The position numbers and the translations under genes were made by a program. A stretch of DNA of 27,915 bases from Fusobacteriota bacterium (GTDB lineage Bacteria > Fusobacteriota > Fusobacteriia > Fusobacteriales > JBNJFI01): assembly GCA_051746725.1 (NCBI GenBank), contig JBNJFI010000020.1, forward strand, positions 1-27,915. The letters are read 5' to 3'. The notes under the pieces were generated by a model that was not told the DNA's origin, made no database searches, and saw only the letters and a list, made by a program, of their open reading frames with translations. Positions 1 through 18,786 of the stretch are shown piece after piece (position 1 is the stretch's first letter; the number at the start of each line of letters is the position of its first letter).

Positions 1-45
1 CATAAAGCAAATAAAATTAGGGCATAAGAGTTTAACAATTACCTA
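1..45 (+). mobile_element. Right end of a second copy of the MITE-like element (truncated by the window start)
   Basis: 2-45 aligns ungapped with 5169-5212 at 37/44 identities. 29-45 read on the minus strand (TAGGTAATTGTTAAACT) matches the left terminal repeat at 4949-4965 at 14/17. Confidence 0.7.
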
Positions 46-3955: not shown

Positions 3956-4495
3956 ATGAAGAAAAAAAATAAAAAAGCTATATTTGCTGGAGGATGTTTT
4001 TGGTGCATGGAGAATCCTTTTCGAGTGGAAAATGGTGTAATAGATGTAACAGTTGGTTATACAGGTGGAGAAACTAAAAACCCAACTTATGAAGAGGTTT
4101 GTACTGGAACTACAGGTCATTATGAAGCTATAATGGTAGAATATGATCCAGATGAAGTCACTTTTGAAAGATTAATAGATATATTTTGGAAGCAGATAGA
4201 TCCAACAGATGAAGGGGGACAATTCGCAGATAGAGGATCTCAGTATGAGACAGTTATATTTTATAAAGATAAAAATCAAGAAAAGATCGCAAAGAAGAAG
4301 AAAAAAGAGTTGGACGAATCTGGGAAGTTTAAAAAGGAGATAGCAACTAAGATACTTCCAGCAGAGATTTTTTATCCAGCTGAAGATAATCATCAAAAAT
4401 ATTATCTTAAAAATCCTACTCATTTCAATATGTATAAAAAAGGATCAGGGCGAGCAGACTATCAAAACGAAACTTGGGGAGGCAAAGATGAGTAA
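3956..4495 (+). CDS. msrA: Peptide-methionine (S)-S-oxide reductase
   Basis: [34 protein letters not shown] and FYPAE..HQ.YY motifs. Confidence 0.97.
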
Positions 4496-4922
4496 CAAAG
4501 ATGATTTAAAAAATAAATTAACTCCGATACAATATGAGGTAACTCAGAAAGATCAAACAGAACCTGCTTTTAAAAATGAATATTGGGATAAGGAAGATGA
4601 GGGAATATATGTAGATGTTGTAACAGGAGAACCTCTTTTTTCTTCTAAAGATAAGTTTCAATCTGGCTGTGGATGGCCTAGTTTTTCAAAACCTTTAAAA
4701 GAAGAAAAAGTAGAAGAAAGAAAAGATAATAGCTTAGGAATGCATAGAACAGAGGTTAGGAGCAAAAAAGGGGATTCTCATTTAGGTCATGTATTTAACG
4801 ATGGACCACAGGAGATGACCGGGCTTAGATATTGTATAAATTCAGCTTCTTTAAAATTCATACCAAAGGAAAAGATGGAAGAGGAAGGGTATGGTAAGTA
4901 TTTAGAAATCTTTGAGGAGTAA
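4488..4922 (+). CDS. msrB: Peptide-methionine (R)-S-oxide reductase
   Basis: [23 protein letters not shown] and RYCINS; no Zn-binding CxxC pairs; 8-bp overlap with msrA. Confidence 0.97.
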
Positions 4923-4936
4923 CATAAAGTAATAAA

Positions 4937-4948
4937 TAAAAACATAAA
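4937..4948 (+). repeat. Left target-site duplication TAAAAACATAAA
   Basis: Identical to 5213-5224; directly abuts the left terminal inverted repeat. Confidence 0.75.
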
Positions 4949-5031
4949 TAGGTAGTTGCAAAACTACAGAAAGAAACTATGAGTTTATCCACAAAGTTAT
5001 TAATAGTTTTAATCTAATTTGATTTTGTATT

Positions 5032-5058
5032 ACCCGGGCGAAGGCCCTTCGCCCTTAC
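5032..5058 (-). repeat. REP-like unit 1 (GTAA + 8-bp hairpin)
   Basis: Minus strand reads GTAA-GGGCGAAG-GGC-CTTCGCCC-GGGT; a GC-rich island in AT-rich DNA. Confidence 0.8.
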
Positions 5059-5095
5059 GTTCAGATTACATAGGGATAAGGATATAAGTTTTTCT

Positions 5096-5122
5096 GTAAG
5101 GGCAAACGGCGTTTGCCCGGGT
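5096..5122 (+). repeat. REP-like unit 2 (GTAA + 8-bp hairpin)
   Basis: GTAA-GGGCAAAC-GGC-GTTTGCCC-GGGT; 23/27 identical to unit 1, and all four differences form two compensatory base pairs. Confidence 0.8.
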
Positions 5123-5212
5123 GCAACCAGTATCTAAAATTGGAGGGATACTCTAATTTATAGAACTAATAAAGCAAATGAAATTAGGATATAAGAATTT
5201 TGCAATTAGCTA

Positions 5213-5224
5213 TAAAAACATAAA
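5213..5224 (+). repeat. Right target-site duplication TAAAAACATAAA
   Basis: Identical to 4937-4948; abuts the right terminal inverted repeat. Confidence 0.75.
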
Positions 5225-5238
5225 AAGAAGGAGAAAAA

Positions 5239-5883
5239 ATGGAAACTAAAGAAGAAATTTTAAAAATATATAATGAAATAGAAGATGATATAAATAAAAG
5301 ATTAGCTGAATTTAAGGCAGTTTGGGAAGAGGGGAGCAAAAAAGATCTCTTTATAGAGTTAACGTTTTGTATCTTAACACCTCAATCTAAAGCAAGAAGT
5401 GCAGATAAGGCCATAAAACAACTTATAGAAAATGGTTTGCTTTTTAACGGTCAACCAGAGGAGATATCTGAGTATTTAAATATCGTAAGATTTAAAAATA
5501 GAAAAGCTCAGTATTTAGTAGAAGCCAGAGAAAAATTTTATAAAGATGGCGAATATATATTAAAAGATATCTTAGAAGATTTAGAAGATCCTATTGAGAT
5601 GAGAAAATGGATTATAAAAAACATTAAGGGGATTGGTTATAAAGAATCTAGTCATTTTTTAAGAAATGTAGGATTTTATAAAGATATAGCAATTTTAGAT
5701 CGTCATATATTAAGAAATTTAGTTTACTTAGGAGTAATAGATGAAGAGCCGAAAACTTTAACAGGAAAAAAATATTTAGAAATAGAAGAAAAAATGAAAA
5801 AAGAATCAGATAAATTAGGTATCAGTATGGAGTATCTAGACTTGGTATTGTGGTATAAAGAGGCAGGAGAGATATTTAAATAA
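5239..5883 (+). CDS. ogg: 8-oxoguanine N-glycosylase/DNA lyase (Ogg2 type)
   Basis: FCILTPQS, VRF.N.KA, HhH motif KGIGYKESSHFLRNVG, ILDRHIL and the C-terminal Lys (GEIFK) typical of Ogg2. Confidence 0.9.
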   Translation: METKEEILKIYNEIEDDINKRLAEFKAVWEEGSKKDLFIELTFCILTPQSKARSADKAIKQLIENGLLFNGQPEEISEYLNIVRFKNRKAQYLVEAREKFYKDGEYILKDILEDLEDPIEMRKWIIKNIKGIGYKESSHFLRNVGFYKDIAILDRHILRNLVYLGVIDEEPKTLTGKKYLEIEEKMKKESDKLGISMEYLDLVLWYKEAGEIFK

Positions 5884-5898
5884 AATCTCTGAAAAATA

Positions 5899-5916
5899 TT
5901 TGACTAGGTAGTCAAA
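5899..5916. promoter_or_regulatory. Palindromic operator 1 (probable TetR site) overlapping the -35
   Basis: TTTGACTA-GG-TAGTCAAA, perfect 8-bp arms. Confidence 0.8.
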
Positions 5917-18518: not shown

Positions 18519-18607
18519 GCCTCGGTGGCGGAACCGGTAGACGCACAGGACTTAAAATCCTGTGGTGAATTTTCACCGTGCCAGTTCAATTCTGGCCCGA
18601 GGCACCA
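18519..18607 (+). tRNA. tRNA-Leu(TAA)
   Basis: Acceptor GCCTCGG/CCGAGGC-A-CCA; anticodon arm CAGGA-CTTAAAA-TCCTG; long variable arm; GTTCAAT T-loop. Confidence 0.97.
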
Positions 18608-18627
18608 TTTCTCAAAAGCACAAATGT

Positions 18628-18704
<77 letters not shown>

Positions 18705-18709
18705 AATGA

Positions 18710-18786
18710 GCCGATGTAGCTCAGTTGGCTAGAGCATGCGGTTCATACCCGCAGTGTCGGAGGTTCAAATCCTCTCGTCGGCACCA
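18710..18786 (+). tRNA. Elongator tRNA-Met(CAT)
   Basis: GCCGATG/CGTCGGC-A-CCA; anticodon arm TGCGG-TTCATAC-CCGCA. The TTCATAC loop resembles elongator Met rather than Ile2. Confidence 0.93.

Follow-up and report, generated by a model that had tools for sequence, protein, structure and literature searches.

A miniature inverted-repeat element between msrB and ogg in a Fusobacteriota bacterium, probably derived from an IS1182-like clade that inserts in one orientation 5 nt upstream of Shine-Dalgarno-like motifs

The window analysed here is a 27,915 nt stretch of DNA, contig JBNJFI010000020.1 of a Fusobacteriota bacterium (assembly GCA_051746725.1), and the subject is a 264 bp element at positions 4949 to 5212 on the forward strand, between msrB and ogg, which encodes an 8-oxoguanine DNA glycosylase. 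The data make it very probable that this element is a miniature inverted-repeat transposable element (MITE) from a clade of insertion sequences (ISs) of about 1.7 kb with an IS1182-like transposase, and that it inserted in a defined orientation 5 nt before a Shine-Dalgarno-like (SD-like) motif. The more general proposition, which we regard as likely, is that the DDE transposases of an IS1182-like clade, present in Fusobacteriales and Clostridia, recognise the SD motif as DNA and insert at exactly 5 bp before it, always in one orientation, and that their IS and MITE progeny for this reason colonise 5' untranslated regions (UTRs) and intercistronic junctions. As an object the element is an ordinary bacterial MITE, as had been inferred in the first-pass annotation of this DNA. 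The rule that governs its position and orientation relative to the ribosome-binding site (RBS) is absent from that annotation and is the unusual part.

There are two copies of a 12 bp target-site duplication, TAAAAACATAAA, at 4937 to 4948 and at 5213 to 5224, which were identified from the sequence and by a repeat search and which directly abut the terminal inverted repeats of the element. The left (L) or distal repeat, TAGGTAGTTGCAAAACT, is at 4949 to 4965 on the forward strand and the right (R) or RBS-proximal repeat, TAGCTAATTGCAAAATT when read inward, is at 5196 to 5212 on the reverse strand; the two agree at 14 of 17 positions. At the base composition of this genome (28.4% G+C) the probability of an exact 12-mer at two fixed places by chance is about 5e-7. 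Between the repeats there is a G+C-rich core (5032 to 5122) with two 19 nt palindromes, at 5036 to 5054 and 5100 to 5118, which can pair with each other in a 27 bp stem (5032 to 5058 with 5096 to 5122). There is no open reading frame (ORF) of 60 aa or more within the 264 bp. The right copy of the duplication ends at 5224 and is followed on the forward strand by the spacer AAGAA (5225 to 5229) and GGAG (5230 to 5233), which is the core of the ogg SD sequence. The gene whose RBS was targeted, ogg (PF22175), runs from 5239 to 5883 on the forward strand, and the co-oriented gene upstream of the element is msrB (PF01641; 4488 to 4922, forward strand). Excision of 4949 to 5224 gives a distance of 40 nt from the msrB stop codon to the ogg start codon and leaves the GGAG untouched. 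An empty orthologous msrB-ogg site was not found, msrB and ogg being apart in all 30 relatives searched; the window's genome is the sole member of its GTDB family (and genus) among the 187 genomes of the order.

The element belongs to a family of copies in its own genome, which is a draft of 155 contigs (2.18 Mb) with no contig under 2.5 kb and in which the window is contig C20. A BLAST search with the 264 bp gave 54 high-scoring segment pairs, 13 of them full length with 73 to 100% identity. Most of the full-length matches align exactly from base 1 to base 264, and this fixes the boundaries of the element. Using a terminal-motif search we curated 22 complete elements of 176 to 273 bp with the same boundaries, all of which have TAG-N4-TTGCAAA at both ends (two copies with one mismatch at one end). 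When all 22 were used as queries there were 66 merged loci, 32 of them at least 170 bp long, which together make up 0.5% of the genome; 17 of the 66 touch contig ends. Each of the 21 complete copies that have both flanks has its own direct repeat of 10 to 13 bp, perfect in 13 cases and with one mismatch in 8. A copy on contig C13 (22825 to 23088) is identical to the window element at 264 of 264 positions and is flanked by AAATATTTTAA. An identical copy elsewhere with a different duplication shows that movement was recent. A further copy, on contig C45, has 96.6% identity and the flanks AAAGAGTAATTT. Alignment divides the elements into two subfamilies with about 50 bases common at each end and unrelated G+C-rich palindromic cores. 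The window element is of subfamily A, and within the MITE set its twin-palindrome core is found in that subfamily only; the core of subfamily B differs and is also G+C-rich and palindromic. The description given in the first-pass annotation, of a 264 bp element with inverted ends, an exact 12 bp duplication and no transposase, the removal of which would leave msrB about 40 bp from ogg with the RBS intact, thus agrees with what we found at the locus. Its suggestion that the element is non-autonomous is supported by the copies, by the copy-specific duplication in 21 of 21 cases and by the matching-ended IS in other DNA that is described below.

An unexpected feature of the copies is their position relative to the neighbouring genes. 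We scored an SD-like pentamer within offsets 11 to 24 from the right end, using the 27 right ends in the window's genome that have at least 45 nt of flank, and the motif faces all 27. The same test was positive for 543 of 20000 random positions in this genome (2.7%) and for 18654 of 491576 intergenic position-orientations (3.8%). Past the motif, at 4 to 12 nt, 20 of the 27 have a start codon that opens an ORF of at least 100 aa; there is a shorter ORF in 4 and none in 3. The genes downstream of the elements have unrelated functions, and no motif was seen in the left flank of the elements in this genome.

We then compared the geometry of 47 sites: 21 from the window's genome, 15 from G119 and 1 from G120 (see below), 7 IS copies from three further genomes (G012, G128 and G030), 1 from a Clostridium felsineum plasmid and 2 metagenome ISs. 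The sites span 6 genome assemblies (at least four genera), two metagenome contigs and one Clostridium plasmid. The duplication could be scored in 39 of the 47 and is 8 to 15 bp long, most commonly 12. At 31 of these 39 sites the duplication ends 5 nt before the first GGRG or GAGG, as in the window copy, and at 4 sites it ends 6 nt before it; gaps of 0, 1, 7 and 8 nt were seen at one site each. The distance from the right end of the element to the motif is variable, at 11 to 20 nt. The insertion geometry is therefore extremely strict. The fixed gap to the motif and the variable distance from the right end suggest that strand transfer to the left end takes place at a point held 5 nt before the motif, while the other point floats.

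The same arrangement is found outside the window's genome. Five of the 187 genomes of the order contain the 15-mer end: the window's genome with 19 occurrences, G119 with 22 and three others with one each. A scan of genome contigs with the 17-mer end found multiple copies only in the G119 record, and single matches elsewhere were taken as chance. G119 is from a different GTDB family from the window's genome. Its elements are about 210 to 260 bp long and have ends in common with the window element and a different interior. The motif faces 13 of the 15 elements with enough flank, and of the 10 duplications that could be scored 8 have a 5 nt spacer and 2 have a spacer of 6 nt. One of these sister MITEs, of 255 bp, is located between groES and groEL (contig L060, 1626 to 3915). 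In G120, which is congeneric with G119, the groES-groEL spacer has no element and there is a single tattaattaatt 5 nt before GGAGG. This element-free spacer with a single copy of the target is an orthologous empty site for the sister MITE of G119. An essential operon, groES-groEL, evidently tolerates the insert. Further elements in G119 precede ftsY and a glycosyltransferase gene. Additionally, a scan of metagenome contigs with the 17-mer end gave at least 120 loci, with flanks for 80 of them, and among the matches listed the arrangement recurs in 11 of the 12 distinct MITE end pairs that have enough flank.

Among the metagenome matches listed there are also two contigs, L175 and L159, on which the inverted ends are 1743 and 1744 bp apart. 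Over exactly this distance the segments L175:775-2517 and L159:126-1869 have 98.2% identity; their flanks are unrelated, and each segment contains one ORF of 474 aa. The right ends of the MITEs align with the IS end next to which the transposase gene begins, and their left ends align with the far end. The IS and the MITEs match over 15 to 22 terminal bases at both ends with the correct polarity; in the window copy, the L repeat matches the distal IS end and the R repeat the transposase-proximal one. The 474 aa protein matches DUF772 (56 bits) and DDE_Tnp_1 (27.8 bits), both above the Pfam cut-offs. The best NCBIfam match for three members is NF033551 (IS1182), which is colinear over both ends of the model, although the scores of 77.5 bits (for the 474 aa protein), 46.6 bits and 79.6 bits are far below the curated cut-off of 270. 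The NCBIfam matches of the partner transposases are to IS1182, IS5 and ISNCY models only, with no IS4-family model among them. Judged by its profile matches, the partner is best placed as IS1182-like, that is, closest to IS1182 yet outside its curated limits.

In an alignment of 20 homologues the residues D146, D281, E414, R410 and K421 and the cysteines C329, C355, C369 and C373 are invariant and Y407 is nearly so. D146, D281 and E414 form a DDE triad, and the Y-R-E-K spacing is that of the IS4/IS5/IS1182 group. The best Protein Data Bank (PDB) matches of an AlphaFold model of the transposase (mean pLDDT 84.4) are chains of the Tn5 transposase (IS50, IS4 family; PDB 4dm0/1muh), with a probability of 1.0, E values of 6e-5 to 3e-4 and global TM-scores of 0.31 to 0.35. 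The two proteins have the DDE triad and the Y-R-E-K spacing in common, but their identity is only 10 to 12% and the N-terminal domain is different. Tn5 is not known to have the four-cysteine insertion; it makes 9 bp duplications and has a weak target preference.

No such IS is present in the assembly that contains the window. No part of this assembly matches PF01609, PF01610 or the partner transposase, pairing of the end motif at up to 4 kb gave only short elements and noise, and a self-BLAST of the genome revealed no IS-sized repeat. Most transposase homologues in the protein collection are on contigs of 1.5 to 2.5 kb, which is the usual look of collapsed IS copies. A contig of this kind would have been lost from the present assembly, in which every contig has at least 2.5 kb. 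In G119 and G120 there is no member of the partner-transposase clade (E <= 1e-5), none of the PF01609 matches is bounded by these ends and PF01610 has no match. An autonomous IS with matching ends, the search for which was proposed in the first-pass annotation, was found (L175 and L159), but only in other DNA. That annotation had also recognised the footprint of a DDE transposase and had named IS4-family groups as an example; the partner is a DDE enzyme, but it is IS1182-like (DUF772 with DDE_Tnp_1) rather than of the IS4 groups.

Relatives of the 474 aa protein are present in 8 of the 187 genomes at E <= 1e-5: in three of these the identity is 41 to 42%, and in the other five the matches are weaker or broken. 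G012 is a complete genome with five IS copies of 1719 bp that are 99.9 to 100% identical, each with a perfect duplication of 10 to 15 bp. Every one of them has an SD-like motif, on the opposite strand, in front of its transposase-proximal end; behind this motif a start codon can be seen in three of the five. G128 and G030 have one IS copy each, in the same arrangement. The relatives on plasmids of Clostridia (37 to 44% identity) give a mixed picture. The copy on the Clostridium felsineum plasmid has a 12 bp duplication and faces, across a spacer of 8 nt, the RBS of a GH43 gene, and a copy on a C. tetani plasmid faces GGGGGG and a GTG start, its duplication not being clear.

Taken together, the data suggest the following explanation. 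The clade would consist of ISs with a single transposase of 469 to 482 aa, in which a DUF772 N-terminal region is joined to a Tn5-like DDE domain with a four-cysteine insertion. The transpososome would itself read a purine-rich A-GGRG motif in the DNA and carry out one strand transfer at a fixed distance of 5 nt, the duplicated target thus ending 5 nt upstream of the GGAG-like core. The second, staggered cut would fall a variable 8 to 15 nt (mostly 10 to 15) further upstream. The asymmetry of the two ends would set the orientation, the transposase-proximal type of end always facing the motif. At the locus in the window, the MITE would have entered an msrB-ogg intercistronic spacer of about 40 nt and spared the SD sequence and start codon of ogg. 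This gene would from then on have been transcribed through the element, which would form a long hairpin in the mRNA. The transposase would have come in trans from an autonomous copy that the assembly does not contain.

Several points weigh against this explanation. The ISs on L175 and L159 have no recognisable duplication, and the L159 copy faces only a weak AGGA; chimeric assembly across the repeat could account for the missing duplications. A copy on a Roseburia plasmid faces AAGGAG and also has no duplication. A copy on a Butyrivibrio proteoclasticus plasmid (L277; NC_014389.1, 1200 to 3125) lies beside a solo left end of another copy; it has a 14 bp duplication, and the arrangement gives a duplicated segment of about 140 bp. 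A variable stagger of 8 to 15 nt is unusual for a DDE transposase. Mobilisation in trans is suggested by matching ends that were found in other DNA, and it is the statistics of the sites that point to recognition of the motif by the protein.

One alternative is that insertion into A+T-rich intergenic DNA is random and that the position upstream of an RBS reflects the survival of harmless copies. The target sites are indeed A+T-rich. With a crude ORF caller, the upstream neighbour was co-oriented in 18 of the 19 cases in which one was found, often 6 to 27 nt from the left end. The close co-oriented genes suggest that many copies sit in formerly short intercistronic spacers, and short spacers offer few other harmless positions. 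However, selection cannot impose one orientation on all 27 right ends or a spacing of exactly 5 nt on 31 of the 39 sites, and many intergenic regions are far longer than the offset window that was used. The five G012 IS copies, which are very young, already show the geometry, and it recurs elsewhere in unrelated sequence surroundings. Additionally, some copies are located beside G-runs that are not RBSs: a copy on contig C38 lies between convergent genes, beside a G-run in the stem of a terminator-like hairpin, and copies on C120 and C9 (at 21877) have no start codon after the motif. These copies argue for recognition of a DNA target rather than selection, and we consider survivorship to be an improbable explanation of the pattern.

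Slightly less probable still is the possibility that the element is primarily a functional RNA or 5' UTR module (a leader, a stabilising or processing hairpin or a promoter carrier) that is kept by the host, its mobility being secondary. The RNA of the element is predicted to fold strongly (-83.1 kcal/mol, z = -6.4) into a long hairpin closed by the inverted ends, and both subfamilies have G+C-rich palindromic cores despite the 28% G+C of the genome. There is a promoter-like site facing ogg at 5113 to 5140 (9 of 12 positions). The depth of the element in contigs from RNA libraries is high when summed over all copies and organisms, a value in which DNA carry-over is possible. However, inverted repeats give a strong fold in any case, and the 12 promoter-like sites in the region are not above the 9.2 (sd 3.5) found in shuffled sequence. 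There is no Rfam match at the element at gathering scores, and at a permissive E value the best match has 21.9 bits against the 81.9 required. The downstream genes are functionally unrelated. The cores differ wholly between the subfamilies and from those of G119, and only the ends, to which the transposase would bind, are common to all of them.

With respect to transcription, msrB follows and overlaps msrA (3956 to 4495), and no terminator-like site was found within the element. The most economical reading of this arrangement is that ogg would be expressed by read-through from the msrA-msrB promoter across a structured insert of 276 nt. An outward hybrid promoter with its -35 box in the R end was considered and was dropped because it would start transcription at or after the SD motif. 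Among 11 sequencing runs, the best contains a fraction of 0.33 of the sampled words of the locus. Among the fragmentary contigs from three metatranscriptome runs and one DNA run that were aligned with 4300 to 5900, none bridges the msrB/element or element/ogg junction with 31 letters on both sides, and the empty-site form of the locus was not seen. One contig of an RNA library continues from an R end into the flank of a different copy, with AAGGAGG and ATG; such contigs indicate neither strand nor transcription.

The remaining alternative is that some other RBS-targeting machinery moves the MITEs and that the ends of the 1.74 kb IS are alike by chance. The candidates would be a guide-RNA-dependent DEDD recombinase of the IS110/IS900 type or a transposase of the ISL3 or IS4 groups. 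This would be in keeping with the absence of the partner IS from the assembly, with duplications of 10 to 13 bp, which would fit the IS4/IS231 groups, and with GTTGCAAA ends, which may resemble those of ISL3, but it is very unlikely given that the assembly has no PF01610 or PF01609 match either, that the IS has the terminal bases in common at both ends in the right polarity and that its autonomous relatives agree with the MITEs in duplication length, spacing and orientation, an agreement not to be expected by chance. The candidate groups were also rejected individually. ISL3 elements make 8 bp duplications, whereas those seen here are 10 to 13 bp, and PF01610 has no match in the window's genome, G119 or G120. 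The IS110/IS900 type, in which inverted ends and long duplications are both absent, was rejected since there are inverted ends and duplications of 10 to 13 bp and the partner is a DDE enzyme. For the IS4/IS231 groups only the duplication length fits, and there is no IS4 model among the NCBIfam matches.

The preferred explanation, an IS1182-like clade that selects SD-like motifs, can be compared with known systems. The members of the IS1182 family (NF033551), which are listed with variable duplication lengths, resemble the partner IS in having a single ORF with DUF772 and DDE_Tnp_1, a length of about 1.7 kb and inverted ends; the difference is in the profile scores of 46 to 80 bits against the cut-off of 270. 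IS1272, of the IS1182 family, is described as behaving differently, in that it replaces an inverted repeat (PMC5678879). A literature search found no paper on RBS targeting by IS1182-like elements and none on MITEs in Fusobacteriales, and the clade may already have a name in ISfinder. The mycobacterial elements IS900, IS901 and IS902 (IS110 family) insert in an oriented manner at the RBS and start-codon regions of host genes. They use a DEDD recombinase and have neither terminal inverted repeats nor a long duplication. IS900-type elements insert between the RBS and the start codon, whereas the present family inserts upstream of the RBS. An antisense ORF of IS900, 'hed', is reported to have no RBS and start codon of its own (PMC8141618). 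TnGBS, ISLre2 and ISKra4, which have Mutator-like DDE transposases, insert at sigma-A promoters, 15 to 17 bp before the -35 box, and the orientation of TnGBS-type insertion is ascribed to the asymmetry of the two inverted repeats (PMC3942029). These elements differ from the present family in that the signal is the -35 box and not the SD sequence, and their transposase superfamily is unrelated.

Among short elements, Correia/NEMIS, ERIC, RUP and the IS231-derived MIC231 are likewise noncoding and multicopy, with inverted ends and hairpin transcripts, and are mobilised in trans. Their duplications are short or fixed (e.g. TA), and we know of no fixed spacing to an SD motif for any of them. The present family differs from such transcribed-spacer MITEs in its 10 to 13 bp duplication and its 5 nt spacing to the motif. 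Few DDE transposases choose a target by its sequence and insert in one orientation. In those known to do so, such as Tn7 and TnGBS, this behaviour has explained how elements persist without harm to the host, and Tn7-like elements have been made into tools.

If the proposed rule is true, a simple protein-only enzyme places DNA 5 nt from any GGAG-type RBS, and the clade would be an RBS-seeking counterpart of the promoter-seeking TnGBS and ISLre2 that spares coding sequence and translation signals. In that case the G+C-rich hairpin cores of the MITEs could serve as mobile leader modules and change how the genes downstream are processed or expressed. For annotation, the family explains 'spacers' of 200 to 270 bp that split operons in Fusobacteriales and that break short-read assemblies, as at the 17 of 66 loci that lie at contig ends. 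For regulation, it raises the question of how the essential groES-groEL operon tolerates a structured insert of 250 nt before its second cistron.

There are also several variants within the family. All copies of subfamily A have an internal A-rich run followed by GGAGG (5140 to 5160 in the window), about 60 to 70 nt before the right end. This resembles the motif that the family itself targets, and nested insertion could occur there. In two copies (C12:2050-2450 and C75:7400-7830) the core palindromes are 120 to 170 nt apart instead of the usual 46 nt or so, suggesting that the space between the palindromes can hold extra DNA. At C5:2181-2296, C118:108-203, C119:2422-2519 and C3:517-557 the twin-palindrome core of subfamily A is present but has no MITE ends. 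In the first three of these it sits inside a larger G+C-rich inverted structure with CCCCCTGGCAGG...GACACAG arms, which resembles the core of subfamily B. These cores are likewise located upstream of RBSs and may represent a second, nested repeat family.

Some copies are incomplete. At C121:3899-4137 there is a truncated copy without a normal right end, with a flanking repeat of about 23 nt (including an indel) followed by AGGAGG and TTG. Two partial copies adjoin each other at C4:1-333, and a copy at C53:6357-6455 is interrupted by a run of N and was for this reason not scored as complete. The window itself begins with a degenerate R-terminal piece of another copy (1 to 45, forward strand), which is cut by the contig end and is 84% identical to element positions 221 to 264; GGAG is at 63 to 66, 17 nt past its end, and there is an ATG at 74. 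It was probably the repeat that interrupted the assembly at this point, as at the other loci that touch contig ends. Elsewhere in the window, the sole Rfam matches are a cluster of three tRNA genes at 18519 to 18783.

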